Below are positions 2,904 through 60,450 of a stretch of 64,000 nucleotides of DNA, one piece after another. Location: positions 30,500 to 94,499 of the forward strand of contig JAQGHG010000003.1 in assembly GCA_028288925.1 (NCBI GenBank), read 5' to 3'. The notes under the pieces were generated by a model that was given only the letters and a program-made list of their open reading frames with translations, was not told the DNA's origin and searched no databases. The translations under genes were made by a program, and so were the position numbers. Every line of letters starts with the position of its first letter. Position 1 is the first letter of the stretch. This DNA comes from Patescibacteria group bacterium. GTDB lineage: Bacteria > Patescibacteriota > Saccharimonadia > UBA4664.

Positions 2904-3588
2904 ACTCGCCCACCGGCGCGGTCTGCACCTGGCCGCCTCCCTGCAAAATCATATTAAAGAGGGGAGAAATGTAGTATTCCTTCAGCTCCGCCGTTAACGG
3001 CTGGGCCAGGAGCTTATTGGCCGCATCCACAAACACCGATGCCCTACCAAAGTAGTAGGCGCCCCAGATAGCGCGGTTCGATATCGCCACCTTTTCGGCG
3101 GTGCGGATCGCAAAGCCCTGGTCATCTGTCTGCACGAAGCTATACCGCGGGTCGGTCGATTCAAACGTCAGCAGCCCAGCTGCGATATCAGCCTTTCCGC
3201 TCAGAGAATCCTCGACCATGTGGTTGTAGGCCTGGCTGGCAAACCAAAAGTCGCAGTCCATGAAGATCACGCCGTCGTCGGCCTCCAAGTGTGGCTCGGC
3301 CCGCAATGCATCGCGTGTAGCCCCGATCGGCTCCTCGTCGGTCATCACAATATTGGCCTCAGGTAGCTTCGCCTTGAGCTGCTTCTGCAGATCATACTGC
3401 TCGTCGTGCTCCTTACGGATGATGATGGTATAAGCCTTGGGCGCCTCAATCGCGTCAAAGCTGCTCAGAGCCTTCAGAAACATCGGCTGGCCGTCTACTT
3501 CGATTAACGGCTTGGGAGTCTTGTAGCCAATCTTGGCAAACCGCGAACCACGTCCCGCCATGGGCATTACGATATGGAGCCGTCTCAT
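2839..3588 (-). CDS. Sugar-phosphate nucleotidyltransferase (MobA-like NTP-transferase fold).
   Basis: MPMAGRGSRF, the G-x-G-x-R NTP-transferase motif, near the N-terminus. Abuts the GT2 gene. Confidence 0.65.
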   Translation of the reverse strand: MRRLHIVMPMAGRGSRFAKIGYKTPKPLIEVDGQPMFLKALSSFDAIEAPKAYTIIIRKEHDEQYDLQKQLKAKLPEANIVMTDEEPIGATRDALRAEPHLEADDGVIFMDCDFWFASQAYNHMVEDSLSGKADIAAGLLTFESTDPRYSFVQTDDQGFAIRTAEKVAISNRAIWGAYYFGRASVFVDAANKLLAQPLTAELKEYYISPLFNMILQGGGQVQTAPVGEFGSFGTPEELDKYVGHHVEPH

Positions 3589-18784: not shown

Positions 18785-19836
18785 GCGGCCAGAACCACAT
18801 CGGCCAACGCACGCCGCACAGCGTTAATCTCGTCGCGATTCTCGGGTCGGTGTGGCCAGGTTAGGTTTGAAAGGTGTACGAGCGCCGCCTGCCTCTTGGG
18901 GTCAATCACCACGAGGCAGCCGGTAAAACCAGTTTTGCCAAACTTCTGGTCGCTGCCGGCGCCGCCCATTACCTTGGCAAAGTTCAGCTCCCAGCCCAGA
19001 CCGGTACTCTCGCCAAGCCGGGCAATTTGGTTCGTGTGCATTAGGATAATTGTCTCGGGCGTAAAGATCCGCCGGCCGTCCCAGCTACCCTCGTTGAGCA
19101 ATAATTATTCAAACTTCAAAACATCTCCAGTCGTCGAAAACAAGCCCGCGTGACCAGGCGGTTTACCCGATTCCCGTAATGCCCATCCAGCCTCATCGTG
19201 CACGCTCCCCCGTACCTCGCCACGCCAATCTACCTCAGTGGGAGCAACCGCTTCGGCGGGGAGGCCAGGGTGGAACGTCGTGTTCTTCATGCCGAGAGGC
19301 TTAAAAAACAGCTCCTGGGCGACTTCATCAAGGGGCCTGCCGCAAATCCGCTCAACTATCAAGCCCAGCAAGATAGCGGGGGAGTTAGTATAGTGGTAGC
19401 GCTCACCGGGTGGTGCCAGGAGTGGGCAAGTGAATAGTCGCTCTAATAGTTGGTCCGGTGTCTCCCTCGCCACCTTCGCCAACCCTCCTGGTAGGTCAAA
19501 AATCACAGTATAAGTCAGCAGGTGCCGGATCAGTATCCGCTCACGGAATTCATTCTGCAGCTCCGGCACATAGGCAATCGCCTGGTCGTCCAAGGCGACC
19601 CGGCCGTCCTCGAGCAGCTTGAGTATAATCGAGCTAGTCGGTATTGACTTCGTAATAGAAGCCACATCGTATGTCGTCTCCGCGGTGACTGCCGGCGCGC
19701 CCGCTTCGTAGGTGAGGCGCCCAAAGGCTCGCACCTCCGTCTTGCCTCGTCGGATCCATCCCACCGTGCAGCCGGGGAACACCCGCTCGCGGATCGCTCG
19801 CTCACAGATCTGTTCGACCTGAGCGGTTACGCTCAA
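18781..19836 (-). pseudogene. Class-C beta-lactamase / serine-hydrolase family gene interrupted by a single in-frame TAA stop (at 19105-19107).
   Basis: Upstream ORF 19105..19836 carries SITKS (SxxK) and YHYTNS (YxN). The in-frame downstream ORF 18781..19101 carries the KTG box (FGKTGFTG). The two ORFs share one frame and are separated only by TAA. Confidence 0.7.
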
Positions 19837-20819
19837 ACTACCGCGCCCATCGGCCGGGAGCCGCTCTGCCGCTGCCAGGTCGCCGCCGAATCAAACTGCA
19901 GCAGCGCCCGCGCCACACGCGTACGGCCGGCCGCTTGATGCCGGGCCACGGCCTCGGCCAGCGATTCGTGCGACAGCTCCATGTCGTGCAAAAAGAAAGC
20001 GTCGTCGCCGTAAGTACGCAAGAACTGCGCCGAGAAACCACCCGGGCTCAAGGCCTGCACGCGGTGCGCCAGCAGCACTAGAGCCTCGTATTGATCACGC
20101 TGAAGCTTTGAGATACCCTGGAGCGGCCGCGCTGTGTCCAGCGTCCGCTGAAAGCTGCTAGCCAACGTCAAGAATTCCGCGTCCACCCCCAGCAACACAT
20201 CCAGCGCGTCATCCATAGCCTCCGTCTGGGTGGGGGAGACGGTGGCGCGCGCCAGCCGCCGCATATCAACCTCGTGCTTGGCCAAAAACGCTTCCATCGA
20301 CTGCCAGCTCGCCGCCACGCGGTCCTCCAATTCCGTCTTGGGTTTAAGGCCGAAATCTCCCGGCGCCACCTGGCCGGTGTAGTCCACCAATAAGCTCGAC
20401 GGGGGGAGCTCCGCTACCAATGCCCCCACAGCCGTCTCGCTCAGCTCAGAAGTCAGGTAAAGGCTGAAGCAGTTGGCCGGAATCATGCCTAGCTGCTTTG
20501 GCCGCACCAAAAAAGCCGTCGCCTCAGGATCATCATGCGGGGCCTCCGCGGCCAGATTCATGTGCTGCATTTGCGTAATGGTATAGGTATACTTCAAAAT
20601 CTCGACGGCGTTCGTGGAAAATGCCCGCCGGCGCTGCAATGTCCGGGAGAGCTTGAGCCACTGCTTTTGAGCCAAAGGCAGCATAGCCGCGGGTTGGTCG
20701 CATACAATGATAGCCTTCCCCAAATGCTGCCGCGCCTGCAGATGGCGCATTACATCCGCCATCATATTTGCCGCTGCGTTTCGGACGCGCCGCCGGTTCT
20801 CCAGATAATGTACAGCCAT
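19833..20819 (-). CDS. Uncharacterised 328-aa protein, co-operonic with radC and the bla-like gene.
   Basis: No recognisable motif. 4-nt overlap with the downstream gene, 38-nt gap to radC. Confidence 0.5.
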   Translation of the reverse strand: MAVHYLENRRRVRNAAANMMADVMRHLQARQHLGKAIIVCDQPAAMLPLAQKQWLKLSRTLQRRRAFSTNAVEILKYTYTITQMQHMNLAAEAPHDDPEATAFLVRPKQLGMIPANCFSLYLTSELSETAVGALVAELPPSSLLVDYTGQVAPGDFGLKPKTELEDRVAASWQSMEAFLAKHEVDMRRLARATVSPTQTEAMDDALDVLLGVDAEFLTLASSFQRTLDTARPLQGISKLQRDQYEALVLLAHRVQALSPGGFSAQFLRTYGDDAFFLHDMELSHESLAEAVARHQAAGRTRVARALLQFDSAATWQRQSGSRPMGAVV

Positions 20820-28613: not shown

Positions 28614-29054
28614 TTATATCAAATCGCCAAAAATTACGTCGACAAGCTTCGCCTTGTCATAAGAAGGGTTCATAGCTAGCTCCAAAAACTCATCTTTAGT
28701 AAACCACTCCCATGTCGCAACATGGGCAGTTTTCTCAAGTAGCTCTTCTGGCAGTGACACTTTGTAGAATAAGTTCATTCGTGGGATGCCATTCACTACC
28801 TTTCCGATATTGTAATAGGCGATCTGGAAGTCAGATGAAACGTCTTTGGCCGACACACCAAGCTCCTCCTCTATTTCACGAGCTAGGCATGACTCAACTG
28901 TTTCGCCATGATCCACTCCGCCGCCAGGAAACGCCCACCACATCTCCGGGGTTTCTTGAACCAATAGTACTTTGTTGTCGTGAACAATCAGCACTCTTGC
29001 CGCGACGCGATACAGGCAATCGTCGACGTCGTTGAGTCGTGGGTCTATGTGCAC
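28614..29054 (-). CDS. NUDIX hydrolase.
   Basis: Nudix box GGGVDHGETVESCLAREIEEELG. Lower GC (about 48% by eye). Confidence 0.85.
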   Translation of the reverse strand: MHIDPRLNDVDDCLYRVAARVLIVHDNKVLLVQETPEMWWAFPGGGVDHGETVESCLAREIEEELGVSAKDVSSDFQIAYYNIGKVVNGIPRMNLFYKVSLPEELLEKTAHVATWEWFTKDEFLELAMNPSYDKAKLVDVIFGDLI

Positions 29055-29070
29055 TACTGCGTACTCCCCA

Positions 29071-29652
29071 TCATCGAGAAAACAGCTCCTTAATCATTCG
29101 GTAGTCTGGCATCACGTCCTCGCGCACATCGTCAAAGAAGATCTTGTTGTTCAAGTCGCGCTCAATTTTGTTGAGCGCCCACTGTTTGATGTCTTCAAGC
29201 TTCATATCGCGTCCAAATGCCCAAATCGCGAATACATAAAAATCCGTCTTCAAATGAGCCAAAGAATCAGCAGTAGATAATATCTTACCCTCGACCGATT
29301 CGGGATGCTCGTCGCCGTGGCAACTGTGATAACGAATAGCGTCATCAACCACTAGCTTAATCTCACGCTCTAAAAAGCTCGATTCCCGCATGAGTTCGCG
29401 GGCCATGCGTAGGCTTTCTTGCTCATGGCCATCAGTGCTGCGCTTCATCCGGACATCAGCAATGTCGTGCAGCAGTGCCGCCGCGCGTGCTAGCTCCTCA
29501 TTGGCGCCATGTTTCTTTGCGAGTTCCGTAGCGTAGTCCGCCACAACAAAAACGTGATTATCTCCATACCAAGTTGCCCATTGATCCCGGCCGGGATCAA
29601 TGCCTTCATATAAGACCTTAACTTTTGCCTCAAGTATGTCGATATGCTCCAC
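29071..29652 (-). CDS. HD-domain protein.
   Basis: LLHDIAD motif and a downstream H..D pair. Lower GC. Confidence 0.7.
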   Translation of the reverse strand: MEHIDILEAKVKVLYEGIDPGRDQWATWYGDNHVFVVADYATELAKKHGANEELARAAALLHDIADVRMKRSTDGHEQESLRMARELMRESSFLEREIKLVVDDAIRYHSCHGDEHPESVEGKILSTADSLAHLKTDFYVFAIWAFGRDMKLEDIKQWALNKIERDLNNKIFFDDVREDVMPDYRMIKELFSR

Positions 29653-29734
29653 TTTTGCTTCATCCTTCTCGTCGTTAGCATCTTATCAGGCTTACCGCGT
29701 TTCGGGCTCAAACGTGCGTGATGTTAGAACCCGG

Positions 29735-30352
29735 CTAGAAAATTAAAACCCTTCCATCCTCGATAGCCTCATACTTCATGCCGTGCTGCTTGCAATATTC
29801 GATGCCGCGTTCGATAGCCTTGCTTTCTGGGTGATCGGAGCGCCAATGAGGCATAAAAGCAAAATCCACCAATCCCAGGCCTTCCCAGATGGTATGGTCT
29901 AACTGCTCGTAAGGCATTATGGTCGGGTCGCCTACTACAGCGTAAGGTTTGAGCGACGGAGCCAAAACACACCCGGCTGCGCTATAGCCCGAGTATAGAA
30001 AGTCTGGGTTTGTCGCCTGGCGAATGATGATGTCATCCAGGCCGCTCAGAAACATAGCTTGTCGAAGCACGAACACATTGCCGCCGAGAACAAATACCGC
30101 ACCCTTCGACTCTATTGCCGTTTTCAGACTAGCTTTATCGTCAAAGAAATCACGCAGGTCAATTACTTCCGCATCTAGGCCAAGGTCATCCAAACGTTCG
30201 ATTTTATTCTTGATACTTCTAATTGTGGTTTCATCATCTCTAGGACGGAAATCTAAGGCGTTGGGTATTATTGCGATCTCAGTTCCGGGCGCCAATTGCG
30301 CAAGCTCATCGCTCTTATCGCCAAATTTGAAGGAAGATAAGTAAAACTTCAT
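29735..30352 (-). CDS. Peptidase S51 (dipeptidase E-like) family protein.
   Basis: VLGGNVFVL and the S51-like spacing of Ser/His. Lower GC. Confidence 0.65.
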   Translation of the reverse strand: MKFYLSSFKFGDKSDELAQLAPGTEIAIIPNALDFRPRDDETTIRSIKNKIERLDDLGLDAEVIDLRDFFDDKASLKTAIESKGAVFVLGGNVFVLRQAMFLSGLDDIIIRQATNPDFLYSGYSAAGCVLAPSLKPYAVVGDPTIMPYEQLDHTIWEGLGLVDFAFMPHWRSDHPESKAIERGIEYCKQHGMKYEAIEDGRVLIF

Positions 30353-30430
30353 GCTCTCATCATAACAAAAACGAGGCTGTGATTAGCCTTGCTTTAAGAA
30401 TAATTTCCTGGCTCCGGGTCATATTGGAAA

Positions 30431-30907
30431 TTAGAACTCGGATACTACTTCAGACCGTGAGAATACTTTGAAGCCGGCCTTCATTGCTTCATCTACAAAG
30501 GCTTCATTAAACGAACCATCTCCATGAGATAGATAGAGTATCTTTACTCGTTTTCGCTCGCTCGCTTTGGCGCCATTTAGCCAGTCTTTGATTAGCATCG
30601 GCGATAACTGTGCTCCTTCGATCACGGTGGGCAAGTCAACTTTGTTGAGCCGATCTTCTATTAAGGATTTAATATGAGGCCAATAAGTATGCGCTTCAAT
30701 CTTGTAATCACTAAAGCTGGGCGTGCGCCGATCATGCTTAGCTTGCCAGACGGGGAGTTTAGCGGAGAAATCTTCTTTTGATATAGAGGCATTGTAGGCG
30801 GGCATCAGCCCATCTAGCTCAACGATCTCGGCATGATGCTTGTTGCCAATATGCTTAGCTAGGAAACTTTTTCCTACACCCGGGGCGCCACCGATGAGAT
30901 ATAACAT
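30431..30907 (-). CDS. Small P-loop NTPase / kinase-like protein.
   Basis: Walker A GGAPGVGKS at the N-terminus, 158 aa. Lower GC. Confidence 0.6.
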   Translation of the reverse strand: MLYLIGGAPGVGKSFLAKHIGNKHHAEIVELDGLMPAYNASISKEDFSAKLPVWQAKHDRRTPSFSDYKIEAHTYWPHIKSLIEDRLNKVDLPTVIEGAQLSPMLIKDWLNGAKASERKRVKILYLSHGDGSFNEAFVDEAMKAGFKVFSRSEVVSEF

Positions 30908-30961
30908 AAAGACATGATAACAAAATAAGGCTAAACAGCCTCGTTCTAAAGGGATAATAAC

Positions 30962-31036
30962 TGGCTCCGGAGGTCGGGCTCGAACCGACGACCAATTCGT
31001 TAACAGCGAACTGCTCTACCACTGAGCTACTCCGGA
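30962..31036 (-). tRNA. tRNA-Asn (GTT), with encoded CCA.
   Basis: Reverse complement folds as a cloverleaf: TCCGGAG/CTCCGGA acceptor, GCTC/GAGC D-arm, anticodon loop CTGTTAA, TTCGAGC T-loop, 3' GGAGCCA. Closely resembles E. coli tRNA-Asn. Confidence 0.9.
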
Positions 31037-31230
31037 ACATGGTACTCGCGAATTATATCGAGACAGCCTCGCTTGGTCAATGATTTAGCTCGCCGTGGTA
31101 GGCCAAAACTGTTATGATACGCGCATGAACTATCGCCGCGCCAACCTCTGTGCGTGTACCTGCCACCCTCACGGGAGGTCGGTTTAGCGTAGTCTTGTAA
31201 CAACAGCCAAAGATTAAGCATAAGCAGTAT

Positions 31231-31257
31231 CCTCCCCACCGGGAGGTTTTTTGTTTT
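31231..31257 (+). terminator. Strong intrinsic terminator (CCUCCC-cacc-GGGAGG followed by UUUUUUGUUUU) in the leader just upstream of the SD of the ilvA-like gene.
   Basis: The hairpin ends 14 nt before the AGGAAGGA SD. A second GGGAGG at 31184-31189 could pair alternatively with the 5' arm, giving an attenuator-like architecture. Confidence 0.6.
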
Positions 31258-31270
31258 AGGAAGGAATATC

Positions 31271-32164
31271 ATGCTTACAACCTCAGAACCCATCATCACC
31301 ATGAGCGAAATCGAGCAAGCAGCCGACCGCCTGGCCGGAGTCGCCCGCCGCACGTCGCTGGAATACTCCGCGCCGCTTTCGGAGCGCTATGGAGCCAAAA
31401 TCTACCTCAAACGCGAGGACTTGCAGCTCGGCGGTTCGTACAAGATCCGCGGCGCCTACAACCTCATGGCCGGCCTGAGCGCCGCCGAACAACAACTCGG
31501 CGTAGTCGCGGCCAGCTCGGGCAATCATGGGCTGGCCGTGGCACTGGCAGCCGCGCGGCTGCAGATCCACGCCACCATCTACCTCCCCTTCGCCACGCCG
31601 CTAGCCAAGGCCACTCAGCTGCGCCGGCTCGGTGGCGGCTGGGTGACGGTGCGGCTAGCCGGCCGCGACCTCGACGCCAGCCTGATCGCCGCCCGCCATG
31701 CCGCCGTCATCTCCGGCGCCACCTTGGTGCACCCGTTCGACGACGCCCGCATCATCGCCGGGCAGGGGACTATCGCCCCCGAAATCCTGGCGCAGTTGCC
31801 GGCCGCCCCTCAGCTGGTGGTGGCGCCCATTGGCGGCGGCGGCCTCATCGGCGGGCTCGGCGCGTACTTCCAGGCCGCCGCCCCCGGCTTGCGGCTCATC
31901 GGCGTGCGCCCTGCGGCCGGCGATACCATCGCATCGAGCGTGGTCATCAAAACGCGCGGCCGCCTCACTTCCCAGCTCGCCGCGCTCATTCATCAAGAGC
32001 TCACCGTCTCAGACACCCACATTCGCCGCGCCCAAGCCGAGCTAGAGCACCATCATGGCATCGCTGCCGAACCCGCCGGTGCGCTTGCTACAGCCGCGCT
32101 ATTCCAGCTTGCCGAATCTGCCGCCGGCCAAACTATTGTGGTTATCATTAGCGGCCGAGGCTAG
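31271..32164 (+). CDS. Threonine ammonia-lyase (threonine dehydratase)-like PLP-dependent enzyme.
   Basis: KREDLQLGGSYKIRGAYNLM (PLP-lysine motif as in IlvA/TdcB), glycine-rich loop GGGGLIGG. About 297 aa with no ACT domains. Very high GC. Confidence 0.8.
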   Translation: MLTTSEPIITMSEIEQAADRLAGVARRTSLEYSAPLSERYGAKIYLKREDLQLGGSYKIRGAYNLMAGLSAAEQQLGVVAASSGNHGLAVALAAARLQIHATIYLPFATPLAKATQLRRLGGGWVTVRLAGRDLDASLIAARHAAVISGATLVHPFDDARIIAGQGTIAPEILAQLPAAPQLVVAPIGGGGLIGGLGAYFQAAAPGLRLIGVRPAAGDTIASSVVIKTRGRLTSQLAALIHQELTVSDTHIRRAQAELEHHHGIAAEPAGALATAALFQLAESAAGQTIVVIISGRG

Positions 32165-32344
32165 GTATTTGTCATATGTCGTCAAACGGCTTATACAAAC
32201 TTACAGCTACGCTCGAAGAAAGCAATTCCTATATACCGTTTGGCGACATATAGGATCGGCTCAACACCTCGCTCCGGCGCCGCATTGTGCCAAGACCACA
32301 CCTTTTCAGCCCCTTCTCAGGTATTTCAGGCTACAATACCAGAC

Positions 32345-33028
32345 ATGAGAATCCTAGTTGTAGAAGACGAGCACAAAATCGCCAGCGCCATCAAGCGCGG
32401 CCTAGAGCAAGAATCCTATGCGGTCGACGTAGCCTATGACGGCGACGAAGGCCTCAGCAGCGCGCTCACCGACGAGTACGACGTCATGATCTTCGACCGC
32501 ATGCTCCCCGGCCTCCTCGACGGCGCCGATATCTGCAAAGAAGTCCGCGCCAACGGCATCCGCACGCCCATCCTCATGCTCACCGCCAAAGACAAGATCG
32601 GCGACCGCGTCGAGGGCCTCAACGCTGGCGCCGACGATTACCTGATCAAACCTTTTGCCTTCGAGGAGCTGCTAGCCCGTATCCGTGCCCTCCTGCGCCG
32701 CCCCCAAGACCACGTCGGCAATGTCCTTACCTTGGACGATCTCAGCCTCGACACCGAAAACTACGAGGTCAAACGCGCCGGCCGCAAAATCCAGCTCTCC
32801 CAACGCGAATACGCCCTCCTCGAGTATCTCCTGCGCAACCAAAACCGCATTCTCTCCAAGTCCAACATCATCGGCCACGTCTGGGACTACGACGCCGACA
32901 TTTTGCCCAACACGCTTGAAGTCTATATTGGCTACCTGCGTGGTAAAATTGAGCGGCCCTTTACCGGCCCGGAACTCATCCACACAGTGCGCGGGTTTGG
33001 CTATAAACTCAGCGTCGAAAGCAAATAA
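32345..33028 (+). CDS. OmpR-family response regulator.
   Basis: MRILVVEDE...D...MLPGL...LMLTAKD receiver domain, plus a winged-helix C-terminus (VRGFGYKL). Confidence 0.9.
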   Translation: MRILVVEDEHKIASAIKRGLEQESYAVDVAYDGDEGLSSALTDEYDVMIFDRMLPGLLDGADICKEVRANGIRTPILMLTAKDKIGDRVEGLNAGADDYLIKPFAFEELLARIRALLRRPQDHVGNVLTLDDLSLDTENYEVKRAGRKIQLSQREYALLEYLLRNQNRILSKSNIIGHVWDYDADILPNTLEVYIGYLRGKIERPFTGPELIHTVRGFGYKLSVESK

Positions 33029-58822: not shown

Positions 58823-58899
58823 TGGTGGGCCCGGCAGGACTTGAACCTGCGACCAAGCGGTTATGAGCCGCCTGCTCTAACCAACTGAGCTACGGGCCC
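58823..58899 (-). tRNA. tRNA with anticodon CAT, most like tRNA-Ile2 (lysidine type, ileX-like).
   Basis: Reverse complement GGGCCCGTAGCTCAGTTGGTTAGAGCAGGCGGCTCATAACCGCTTGGTCGCAGGTTCAAGTCCTGCCGGGCCCACCA. Strong resemblance to E. coli ileX through the anticodon and T arms. Confidence 0.85.
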
Positions 58900-58934
58900 C
58901 CATAATGCGGGGCAAGTATATTATACTTACGACA

Positions 58935-59741
58935 ATGAAGCTGCGCCATCTGATAATACCACTAGCTCTCGGGGCTTTCCTGAGCCTCGCGCCGCGTCCG
59001 GCCGCCGCTGCTAGCGAAGCCGTTGCCAATATAGCCGTTACGGCGCATCTAGACAAGGCCGGCTCCCTCGACATCACCGAGGCGATCGATTACGACTTCG
59101 GCGATACCGCTCCCCACGACGTCATCCACGGCGTGCCTTTGTCCTACCACGATGATCAGGGCAACAACTTCAACCTCACCTTTAAGCTGCTCTCCGCCAC
59201 CCGGGACGGCGCGCCCCTGCGTGATGCCGCGGCCGCCGACTCAAACGCCGTTCACTTCAATCTCCCCTCCGGATCAGCCGCGGGCACGCGCCACTACGAG
59301 CTGCACTATACGCTCGCCCCAGTGGTCTTCCATGGCGACACGCACGACATCTTCAAACACAACATCACCGGGCTGAGCTGGGCCGTGCCGGTCAACCAGG
59401 TTTCGTTCAAGCTCGACAGCCCCGGCCTCGTATCGGCCGACCTCACCTGCCTCACCGGCGCTCAGGGATCCACCTCTAGCAGCTGCCAGACGTCCCAGGA
59501 CGGAGATCTGCTCACTGTCACGGCCACCGCCCCCATCCCAGCCGGCGAGACCCTCAGTGCCTACTGCAGCTTCCCTCACGATTCCTTCGGTCGTTATCTT
59601 GAGCTAGCCAGGAACCCGCTGGCCTGGCTGCCTTTGGCGCTTGTAGGCCTCGTAGCCGCCGCCTTCCTAGCTATCATCATCACCGGCATCGTCTTCCTGA
59701 TCCGCCGTCATATGCAGCCGCCGGCGCCCCCCGAGTCCTGA
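58935..59741 (+). CDS. Hypothetical exported protein with a C-terminal TM anchor.
   Basis: Signal peptide MKLRHLIIPLALGAFLSLAPRPAAA and a C-terminal helix LVGLVAAAFLAIIITGIVFLI. Confidence 0.5.
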   Translation: MKLRHLIIPLALGAFLSLAPRPAAAASEAVANIAVTAHLDKAGSLDITEAIDYDFGDTAPHDVIHGVPLSYHDDQGNNFNLTFKLLSATRDGAPLRDAAAADSNAVHFNLPSGSAAGTRHYELHYTLAPVVFHGDTHDIFKHNITGLSWAVPVNQVSFKLDSPGLVSADLTCLTGAQGSTSSSCQTSQDGDLLTVTATAPIPAGETLSAYCSFPHDSFGRYLELARNPLAWLPLALVGLVAAAFLAIIITGIVFLIRRHMQPPAPPES

Positions 59742-59754
59742 TATACTAAAACCA

Positions 59755-60156
59755 ATGAAGATCCCCAAACTCCCCCAGCTCAGGCTCACCCTCTCGAGCG
59801 TCGTAAATGTCGTGGGCGTGGCTATCATTGCCTACCTGCTGGTCGTCTTGGCCCAGACCGTCAAGCACAACTACGACATGGGCCGCCAGATCGAAGACCT
59901 CAAGTCGCAAATCACCCTGCTCCAGGATCAAAAAGATTCCCTGGCCTACAGCATCCAGTACTACAAGACCGACTCCTTCCGCGAACGCGAAGCCCGCTCC
60001 AAGCTCGGCCTCCAGCTCCCGGGCGAAAACGTCGTAATCGTGCCCCACGCCAGCTCCACCCCGGCTCTCAATCCCTCCGACACCACCAAACGGCCGCTCG
60101 GTCCACGCTCAAATTTTCAGCAATGGCTCGACTTCCTCACCGGCCGCGACAGCTAG
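59755..60156 (+). CDS. FtsB/DivIC-like septum-formation initiator.
   Basis: Single TM helix plus a coiled coil (IEDLKSQITLLQDQKDSL). Confidence 0.6.
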   Translation: MKIPKLPQLRLTLSSVVNVVGVAIIAYLLVVLAQTVKHNYDMGRQIEDLKSQITLLQDQKDSLAYSIQYYKTDSFREREARSKLGLQLPGENVVIVPHASSTPALNPSDTTKRPLGPRSNFQQWLDFLTGRDS

Positions 60157-60170
60157 CGATCCCGTCAACA

Positions 60171-60199
60171 GTTGACCGGGGCCTCCCAATCTGGTAAAT
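60171..60199 (+). promoter_or_regulatory. Promoter TTGACC-N17-TAAATT for the initiator tRNA.
   Basis: ttgacc at 60171-60176, taaatt about 12 nt upstream of the tRNA 5' end. Confidence 0.4.
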
Positions 60200-60211
60200 T
60201 ATAGCTTGTTG

Positions 60212-60289
60212 CCGCGGGGTGGAGCAGATGGATTAGCTCGCTGGGCTCATAACCCAGAGGTCGTAGGTTCAAGTCCTACCCCCGCTACC
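60212..60289 (+). tRNA. Initiator tRNA-fMet (CAT).
   Basis: CGCGGGGTGGAGCAG...CTGGGCTCATAACCCAG... closely parallels E. coli tRNA-fMet. Three G-C pairs in the anticodon stem, a C1-U72 mismatch, and encoded CCA. Confidence 0.9.
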
Positions 60290-60311
60290 AGAAATTATCC
60301 ACACACAAAAG

Positions 60312-60359
60312 GAGGCCCCTGCGGCCTCCTTTGCATAGGTGCCTCGTACCGTTATAATA
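60312..60359 (+). promoter_or_regulatory. Terminator hairpin (GGAGGCC-cctgc-GGCCTCC-TTT) immediately followed by promoter TTGCAT-N16-TATAAT for the next tRNA.
   Basis: Hairpin at 60312-60333. ttgcat at 60332-60337 and tataat at 60354-60359. Confidence 0.55.
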
Positions 60360-60375
60360 CTCAAAGTCAAAGCCT

Positions 60376-60450
60376 GGCTGCGTAGCTCAGTGGTAGAGCA
60401 GGAGACTCATAAGCTCTTGGTCGGTAGTTCGAATCTACCCGTAGCCACCA
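60376..60450 (+). tRNA. Elongator tRNA-Met (CAT).
   Basis: GGCTGCG...CGTAGCCACCA acceptor as in E. coli elongator tRNA-Met. Anticodon loop CTCATAA. An A31-G39 mismatch is noted in the anticodon stem. Confidence 0.85.

Follow-up and report, generated by a model that had tools for sequence, protein, structure and literature searches.

The window analyzed here is a 64,000-nucleotide (nt) stretch of a Patescibacteria group bacterium genome, and our subject is the leader region of an IlvA-like gene located within it. This gene (31271..32164, plus strand) encodes a 297-amino-acid, IlvA-derived pyridoxal phosphate (PLP) enzyme that consists of the catalytic fold only. It is preceded by a leader open reading frame (ORF) of 20 codons (MNYRRANLCACTCHPHGRSV; 31125..31187, plus strand, stop codon UAG at 31185-31187), an intrinsic terminator (31231..31257, plus strand), and the Shine-Dalgarno (SD) sequence AGGAAGGA (31258-31265, plus strand). 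A first-pass annotation, made by a model from the sequence of this region, had noted a terminator, an SD, and a short ORF before an ilvA-like gene in the interval 31039-31270, and all of these are indeed present. It had also favored leader-peptide attenuation, a reading that comparative data and ribosome-masked folding now back. We consider it probable, on sequence and modeling grounds, that positions 31110-31270 constitute a leaderless leader-peptide (ribosome-mediated) transcription attenuator of the gene at 31271.

The leader carries the components that such a device would use. The 5′ leader includes a short translatable ORF, and a rho-independent terminator lies between this ORF and the structural gene. 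The terminator is composed of CCUCCC (region 3; 31231-31236), the loop CACC (31237-31240), GGGAGG (region 4; 31241-31246), and the tract U6GU4 (31247-31257). A scan of window positions 30000-33000 revealed no other plus-strand terminator-like site between the upstream tRNA gene and the ilvA-like gene. Although it had been called very strong, this terminator is an ordinary one of 6 bp and -10.6 kcal/mol, and is the weakest of the family described below. Two spacings also needed adjustment, in that the terminator stem ends 11 nt (not 14 nt) before the SD, and the spacer from the SD to the ATG at 31271 is 5 nt rather than 6.

Upstream of the terminator, a hairpin with the role of an anti-antiterminator (1:2; 31158..31183, plus strand, -11.6 kcal/mol) can be formed by region 1 (ACCUGCCACCC; 31158-31168), the loop UCAC (31169-31172), and region 2 (GGGAGGUCGGU; 31173-31183). 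Region 2 begins with GGGAGG (31173-31178), and this same segment can alternatively pair with CCUCCC at 31231-31236 to create an antiterminator (2:3; 31173..31236, plus strand), which also includes an inner helix (31182-31196/31210-31225). The pairing of an upstream GGGAGG with the terminator's 5′ arm had been foreseen by the first-pass annotation and is sustained by masked folding and by sequence comparison, but the segment had been misplaced at 31184-31189. Likewise, the 20-codon ORF exists where it was proposed but does not end exactly at GGGAGG, which instead forms part of the ORF (codons 17-18) and is followed by a further 9 nt of it. The SD at 31258-31265 stands outside the switch helices, and thus the sequestration of the ribosome-binding site that characterizes translational attenuation is not seen. 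As a separate observation, the GGGAGG sequences of regions 2 (31173-31178) and 4 (31241-31246) themselves resemble an SD, and CCUCCC of region 3 (31231-31236) resembles the anti-SD of 16S rRNA.

According to the mechanism that we propose, transcription from an extended -10 element at 31110-31118 would start at or next to the leader AUG (31125), and the 20-codon ORF would be translated in leaderless fashion. If the ribosome reaches the stop codon or never loads, then region 1 (31158-31168) would pair with region 2 (31173-31183), or the ribosome would itself cover region 2. With region 2 sequestered in either way, the terminator (31231-31257) would form and the transcript would end before the SD. 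If the ribosome were instead stalled in codons 9-13, it would cover region 1 and leave the GGGAGG of region 2 free for CCUCCC, which would permit readthrough into the gene. The putative sensor is the codon cluster CTC TGT GCG TGT ACC TGC (L C A C T C, codons 8-13; 31146..31163, plus strand). This cluster is positioned such that a ribosome stalled on it would lie over region 1, and the amino acid presumably sensed in the window is considered further below.

The element is present upstream of ilvA in nine loci besides the window, all from Patescibacteria/Saccharibacteria, and each has a homologous leader ORF. In L081, L082 (identical in L083/L084), L085 (a complete 1.32-Mb genome, CP064960.1), L086, L087, L088, and L094, ilvA is immediately preceded by the same leader, and more distant versions occur in L061 (a “Candidatus Saccharibacteria” metagenome-assembled genome) and L095. 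A covariance model built from eight aligned leaders matches the window once (31125-31258, 94.6 bits, E 3e-18), with the next best match at E 2.7. This model also detects L095 upstream of the gene for protein P0055 (E 1e-4) and, when applied to 94 loci, L061 (E 0.022). At L061 (2811-2928), the leader MAKGIISIIGIIITSFGGALA is followed by the 1:2 hairpin ACCUCC-UUCG-GGAGGU and the terminator ACCUCCCG-UA-CGGGAGGU-U6. Because this low-GC locus has the same design in a different sequence, the family spans a wide GC range.

Several searches define how far the family extends. The covariance model does not match L090, which encodes a 46% identical IlvA and has no leader, and of 80 ilvA loci that are more distant, it matches L061 but not the other 79. 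When Ile-rich short ORFs of any sequence were sought in front of the 80 distant ilvA loci, L061 was again the only match. Genome contigs searched with the window protein yielded only relatives of at most 43% identity, and none has the motif except L061. One further locus, L093, ends inside the terminator. Leader-motif scans of metagenome contigs gave no matches and then two (L091 and L092), which lack leader context, and scans of viral contigs gave no matches and then 29, none of which was confirmed by the covariance model; both sets were set aside as chance matches. We also observed that the called ilvA start of L087 (MKGPFMPTA...; 3001-3018) directly follows the terminator and has no SD. This start is probably mis-called, because residue 6 is encoded by another ATG, which comes after AAAGGA and corresponds in the alignment to the MPT start of the relatives.

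The alternative helices are well kept across the family. The helix between region 1 of the family (CUGCCACCC) and region 2 (GGGAGGCCGG) has an energy of -10 to -13 kcal/mol, and across 8 sequences this 1:2 helix is paired in 97% of cells. For the antiterminator, GGGAGG:CCUCCC is paired in 100% of cells and the inner GGUUU:AAACC helix in 75%, with one compensatory change (U-A to C-G, in L087) in the inner helix. All ten loci have a terminator, with stems of 6-11 bp followed by a U-tract, and compensatory AU/GC changes occur at 3 pairs of the stem base. Another conserved block, CGGTTTAGCGTAG (31180..31192, plus strand), holds stop codons in two frames and is almost invariant in the 8 aligned leaders, the exceptions being L087 (one T-to-C change) and L088 (an indel). 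Part of this block, GCGUAG (31187-31192), can pair with CUAUCGC (31130-31136; CUACGC at the 5′ end of the family) to form a putative closing stem, P0. This stem is paired in 85.7% of cells, compared to 8-37% in slid controls, and exhibits no covariation. L061 has an equivalent closing stem made from other sequence (GCUAAGG:CCUUAGC). The conserved block and P0 are best described as putatively functional.

Constrained folding had been suggested as a check by the first-pass annotation, and it gives the classical attenuation outcomes. In our implementation, ribosome-covered nucleotides were made unavailable for pairing, and a mask that reached 10 nt beyond the A-site codon was sufficient to hide region 1. 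In the window leader, masking of region 1 always gives the antiterminator as the minimum free energy (MFE) structure. With a ribosome stalled at the last codon of the cluster and region 4 not yet transcribed, the 2:3 antiterminator is predicted in 8/8 aligned leaders as well as in L061 and L095. The antiterminator stays the MFE structure in five of the eight if region 4 is present. A ribosome at the stop codon yields the terminator in all eight aligned leaders and L061, and with no ribosome, the 1:2 hairpin together with the terminator is predicted in 6/8 leaders. Constrained folding and pair counts thus both indicate that the 2:3 and 1:2 helices would be mutually exclusive.

The predicted start of the transcript determines how long the leader is. 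The extended -10 element TGTTATGAT (31110..31118, plus strand) ends 6 nt before the leader AUG, and its counterpart in L095 is TGTTATGGT. In all ten loci (nine examined together, plus L095), the distance from the end of TGnTAnnnT to the leader AUG is 6-7 nt, and none of the ten has an SD before the leader ATG. By comparison, SD-like purine runs are located upstream of ilvA itself in most relatives. Given the proximity of the -10 box to the AUG and the missing SD, the leader ORF is predicted to be leaderless, with transcription starting at or adjoining A31125. The leader is therefore about 146 nt in length (31125-31270) and not the roughly 190 nt noted before, since one third of the interval quoted for it is promoter DNA. 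More precisely, the first ~85 nt of 31039-31270 are two divergent promoters, that of the leader and that of a tRNA gene.

This tRNA gene, for tRNA-Asn(GTT) (30962-31036, minus strand), is the neighbor on the 5′ side of the leader. It has a sigma-70-type promoter (31052..31080, minus strand; -35 TTGACC at 31080-31075 and -10 TATAAT at 31057-31052) with 11/12 consensus matches in a promoter scan, which fills the 5′ part of the interval from the first-pass annotation and lies outside the leader. No plus-strand gene is located upstream of the leader, in agreement with that annotation. A minus-strand tRNA-Asn gene is also found upstream, at varying distance, in L081, L082, L085-L088, L094, and L095. 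Beyond the tRNA gene, and directly adjoining it, the window has a GC content of 0.45-0.50 (29000-31000) vs about 0.58 elsewhere. The genes of this stretch are all on the minus strand and encode a P-loop kinase-like protein (30431-30907), a PepE-like peptidase (29735-30352), and an HD-domain protein (29071-29652). This stretch may be a small island inserted beside tRNA-Asn(GTT).

An RNA with its own promoter and terminator might also act in trans as an independent small RNA, about 130 nt long (31125 to ~31255), either with its position relative to the gene being incidental or with both roles combined. Some precedent exists in that trans action is reported for terminated attenuator RNAs of other bacteria (rnTrpL of Sinorhizobium). 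We regard this explanation as very unlikely for the window, where the RNA occurs in a single copy, because the element is always immediately upstream of ilvA or its truncated derivative (here called ilvA'), its terminator abuts the SD of that gene, and both the leader ORF and its cluster show codon-level conservation. A small-RNA role could nevertheless coexist with an attenuator.

Conservation of the leader peptide points to the signal that most members of the family would sense. The leader ORFs range from 20 to 26 codons, and conservation of the peptides is limited to the start (MNY) and the codon cluster. In the relatives, this cluster is rich in Ile (I-I-C-A-I-I-C), as can be seen in the peptides MNYAQAIICAITCHPNGRPV, MNYRVAIICEIICHPSREAGLA, MTYARTIICAIICHPLGRPV, MNYQVATICAIICRPSREAGLA, MNYASVIIMGIIRISPREVGLA, MNYASMIICEIICHPHREAV, and MNYVPATIICEIICHPSREAGLA and in the L061 peptide given above. 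Peptide positions 7, 8, 11, and 12 are Ile (ATT or ATC) in 26 of the 28 codons of seven close relatives, and the L061 leader has seven Ile among 21 residues, encoded by ATA, ATT, and ATC. This Ile type, with 3-7 Ile codons in the cluster, is represented by eight loci and every one precedes a gene for an IlvA of full length and of the feedback type. The background frequency of Ile in the ORFs of the window is 6.2%. To judge from its sequence, the Ile cluster marks an attenuator that responds to Ile and controls the enzyme for the first step of isoleucine biosynthesis. On the 3′ side of the cluster, the reading frame varies among loci because of 1-nt indels, and therefore the 3′ block is conserved as RNA and not as peptide.

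That the RNA itself is conserved might also suggest that a metabolite riboswitch, a T-box, or a leader bound by a protein in the style of TRAP or PyrR acts on the terminator without any translation of the ORF. Two alternative structures do exist, and the block CGGUUUAGCGUAG is conserved beyond the apparent needs of pairing and of the stop codons. However, at precisely the site where a stalled ribosome would lie over region 1, Ile codons persist despite synonymous changes (ATT/ATC/ATA), a T-box would need a longer conserved part, and no Rfam family is found at threshold in the window leader or the nine related loci. We therefore judge this class of explanation to be highly improbable, more so than the small RNA. 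The first-pass annotation had not matched the leader to any riboswitch class or T-box by eye and had proposed an Rfam/Infernal search, whose outcome agrees in that no family matches the leader. Across the whole window, Rfam at the gathering threshold identifies only tRNAs. At the locus, the best match with E values up to 10 is Phe_leader (17.6 bits vs a gathering threshold of 55, E 2.6), and this covers the terminator hairpin only. The nine related loci have no match to a leader family or T-box. Weak matches to Phe_leader, snoR28, YrlA, and anti-hemB were dismissed as chance.

The window leader departs from its relatives at precisely the sensor. Its LCACTC cluster occupies the site of the Ile cluster, but it has no Ile codons, and the homologous positions read AAC, CTC, TGT, and ACC. 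Compared to the consensus of the relatives, 7/12 nt are changed at the four Ile-codon positions, vs only 1/32 nt in the switch block, which begins with region 1, includes region 2, and ends at GCGTAG (hypergeometric P = 4e-4). With changes concentrated in the Ile-codon positions and the block intact, the switch RNA appears to have been maintained while the sensor was rewritten. Cys is present at peptide positions 9, 11, and 13, against a background frequency of 0.5%. The three Cys among six residues to which the first-pass annotation drew attention gain weight from L095, whose leader MFSTFSQLCACTCCSPSGRKLECSLT has the cluster codons CTC TGT GCT TGT ACT TGT TGT. Within LCACTC, the two loci differ by three synonymous third-position changes only (GCG/GCT, ACC/ACT, and TGC/TGT), and the L095 peptide outside this cluster is unrelated to that of the window. 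L095 also shares its promoter spacing, terminator, and tRNA-Asn neighbor with the window.

The downstream enzyme has changed as well. The 297-amino-acid product is identical to a deposited “ilvA [Patescibacteria group bacterium]” protein, and it is a truncated and diverged derivative of IlvA, which could not be seen in the first-pass annotation. Its best NCBIfam IlvA score is 260 bits vs a cut-off of 421, and the match covers profile positions 6-312 of 418, which correspond to the catalytic part. The C-terminal regulatory domain (PF00585, Thr_dehydrat_C) is missing, and tblastn revealed no remnant of this domain after the stop codon. By comparison, nearly all among the 120 homologues listed have PF00585 and are about 415-430 amino acids long. 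The window enzyme thus does not have the combination of PALP and ACT-like domains and the score above the NCBIfam equivalog cut-off that mark a biosynthetic IlvA. About 18 amino acids are also deleted internally, and several motifs are altered, including GNHAQG (to GNHGLA), IGVEP (to IGVRP), SGGN (to SGRG followed by the stop codon), and DGAAV. The PLP-binding Lys, the Asn, the GGGG loop, and the Ser are kept.

Two other proteins share this form. The L095 leader precedes P0055 (311 amino acids), which is truncated like the window enzyme and shares its derived motifs, and an exhaustive search revealed a third truncated IlvA-like protein, P0121 (312 amino acids), on 8 Logan contigs. The three have derived motifs in common, group together in 142/200 bootstraps, are 46-50% identical, and have open frames throughout. 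We considered whether the window gene is a pseudogene, which is unlikely given that all three truncated homologues keep open frames and the PLP-binding residues. The window IlvA' is 51-58% identical to the relatives, which are 71-86% identical mutually. Genes for a response regulator and a histidine kinase are located downstream in the window, L085, L086, and L088, and the window versions (84-91% and 55-62% identity, respectively) are no more diverged than those among the relatives. Therefore, the enzyme appears to have evolved fast in place. For the response regulator, the identity refers to the protein from ATG 32345 (MRILVVEDE...) and to its counterparts downstream of ilvA in L085, L086, and L088. 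The ORF as listed (32240-33028) starts at TTG 32240, and ATG 32345 is the probable start.

Because a Cys-rich cluster stands in place of the ancestral Ile codons and the enzyme has diverged without its regulatory domain, the likeliest signal for the window is a shortage of tRNA-Cys charging rather than of tRNA-Ile charging. Sensing of Cys-tRNA charging by this leader is plausible, although we would give it only about an even chance. We further suggest, tentatively and as a possibility that falls well short of this, that the sublineage rewrote an Ile sensor into a Cys sensor while its enzyme lost the Ile-binding domain and was remodeled into a new PLP enzyme, e.g., for cysteine supply or salvage via aminoacrylate chemistry. 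Cysteine desulfuration by a threonine dehydratase is reported in a preprint (10.1101/2020.12.23.424250), which we take as a lead only for the chemistry of the window enzyme.

The same changes could be explained by decay. In a relic attenuator, the switch RNA would have been inherited but would sense no specific amino acid, and a constitutive or leaky terminator would keep a decaying or little-needed gene low, with at most a response to general translation arrest. This would fit with a leader devoid of Ile codons, a gene that is truncated, internally deleted, and fast evolving, the weakest terminator of the family, and the ancestry of two of the three Cys codons. Nevertheless, decay would not readily account for structural blocks that are as well kept as in the relatives (1/32) while changes are concentrated in the sensor codons, nor for the preservation of LCACTC in L095 by synonymous changes only when the remaining peptide is different. 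Furthermore, the truncated enzyme persists as ORFs in three lineages (46-50% identity) with PLP-binding residues retained. We therefore consider a relic unlikely, albeit less so than the small-RNA and riboswitch-type explanations.

Several points weigh against our interpretation of an active attenuator that senses Cys. The proposal for Cys is based on two leaders, those of the window and L095. Two of the three Cys codons (9 and 13) also occur in most Ile-type leaders and hence are ancestral, and one Cys codon (UGC) belongs to region 1 and may therefore be kept for RNA reasons. In addition, a gene that is switched on when Cys runs short should help to provide Cys, a role that is conjectural for this enzyme. 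More generally, we infer the transcript start, the termination or readthrough, the leaderless translation, and the sensed amino acid alike.

Other such points concern the RNA. The free MFE structure of both the window and L086 is a nested fold (1:4 + 2:3) that competes with 1:2 + 3:4, and therefore cotranscriptional kinetics must be invoked for both leaders. In L095, the 1:2 hairpin is poor and the ORF is longer. With a ribosome at its stop codon, the computed fold of L095 keeps the region 2:3 pairing and forms no clean terminator because, given this longer ORF, the mask falls short of region 2; a ribosome located between regions 2 and 3 of L095 would be expected to block their pairing, which we argue on steric grounds and not from the fold. 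The comparison of orthologous leaders proposed by the first-pass annotation upheld conservation, in nine other loci, whereas covariation is weak to modest because the GGGAGG/CCUCCC cores are invariant. Such invariance is expected if one segment must pair with two partners. Finally, the overall pair counts come from A3, an N-padded hand alignment (as was A2) that was built since the MAFFT alignment A1 misaligned the terminator arms. In A3, the 1:2 hairpin and terminator are paired in 95.7% of cells with 3 compensatory pairs, and the antiterminator in 87.8%, compared to 34-67% in slid controls (34-66% in those for the 1:2 hairpin and terminator), but these counts are biased upwards because the alignment was made with the structure in mind.

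Two additional observations were made elsewhere in the window. Three tRNA-Met(CAT) genes are located within 1.7 kb (58823-60450), one on the minus strand and two on the plus strand, and presumably represent initiator, elongator, and tRNA-Ile2-type species. ARAGORN also predicted a “tRNA-???” of 95 nt with the four-base anticodon caag (19874-19968, minus strand). This is most likely a false positive, as it is inside a 328-codon ORF (19833-20819, minus strand) and is not supported as a tRNA by Rfam.

How bacteria of the candidate phyla radiation (CPR) regulate their genes and metabolize amino acids is poorly known. These bacteria are thought to have almost no amino-acid biosynthesis. The family described here suggests that CPR bacteria use leaderless translation for sensing, and that they control ilvA through the charging of Ile-tRNA; if so, they would have a functional isoleucine pathway or a need for isoleucine. 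If confirmed, the change from an Ile to a Cys sensor with the RNA switch left intact would illustrate concisely, in a natural system, how the specificity of an attenuator evolves. The co-evolution of a regulatory leader and its enzyme toward a new function would then be traceable, and the Cys-type leader offers a lead to the function of an uncharacterized subfamily of IlvA-derived enzymes.

Our literature searches retrieved no attenuator described in Patescibacteria/CPR. The classical examples are those of enterobacteria, including trpL, thrL, ilvL of ilvGMEDA, and pheL, and Rfam includes the families Trp_leader, Thr_leader, Leu_leader, His_leader, and Phe_leader. The window family resembles these attenuators in having a short ORF with a codon cluster, overlapping 1:2, 2:3, and 3:4 pairings, and a terminator before the first structural gene, such that the position of the ribosome would select the fold. 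Unlike them, it has no SD for its ORF, which is apparently leaderless, and it would control a single gene rather than an operon in a Patescibacteria/CPR host. There is also no similarity to them in sequence or to their covariance models, and the cluster in the window encodes Cys instead of the end product of the pathway.

With respect to the presumed leaderless start and the anti-antiterminator at the 5′ end, the element resembles the ilvBNC attenuator of Corynebacterium glutamicum, for which a leader peptide, IlvL, and a three-hairpin model have been described, with further ilvB leaders predicted in Actinobacteria (PMC11857589; PMC1262725). There, too, a terminator and a short ORF containing codons for Ile, Val, and Leu precede a branched-chain pathway gene. 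The leader transcript is regarded as leaderless, and its 5′ hairpin serves as an anti-antiterminator that can block initiation (PMC11857589; PMC1262725). By analogy, the P0 and 1:2 helices would play this role in the window family. The two systems differ in that the controlled gene is ilvA and not ilvB, the sequences are unrelated, the phylum is different, and the element described here is known from sequence alone. Their sensors also differ, with mixed Ile/Val/Leu codons in C. glutamicum vs Ile only in the relatives or Cys in the window.

The Cys-type leader can be compared with the mycobacterial “Cys ribulon” described in a preprint (bioRxiv 10.1101/834739). In that system, polycysteine leaderless short ORFs are reported to remodel the RNA when ribosomes stall at their Cys codons, which raises expression when Cys is scarce. 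The window shares with the ribulon a leaderless (here predicted) short ORF with clustered Cys codons upstream of a regulated gene. In contrast, the mycobacterial switch has a run of Cys codons and frees a sequestered ribosome-binding site, whereas that of the window would act on an intrinsic terminator, has interspersed Cys codons (C-A-C-T-C), and precedes a gene that is no recognized Cys-metabolism gene. Set beside these systems, the leader upstream of the IlvA-like gene is a real and conserved element, probably of a known mechanistic kind, that belongs to a new sequence family in a new phylum.

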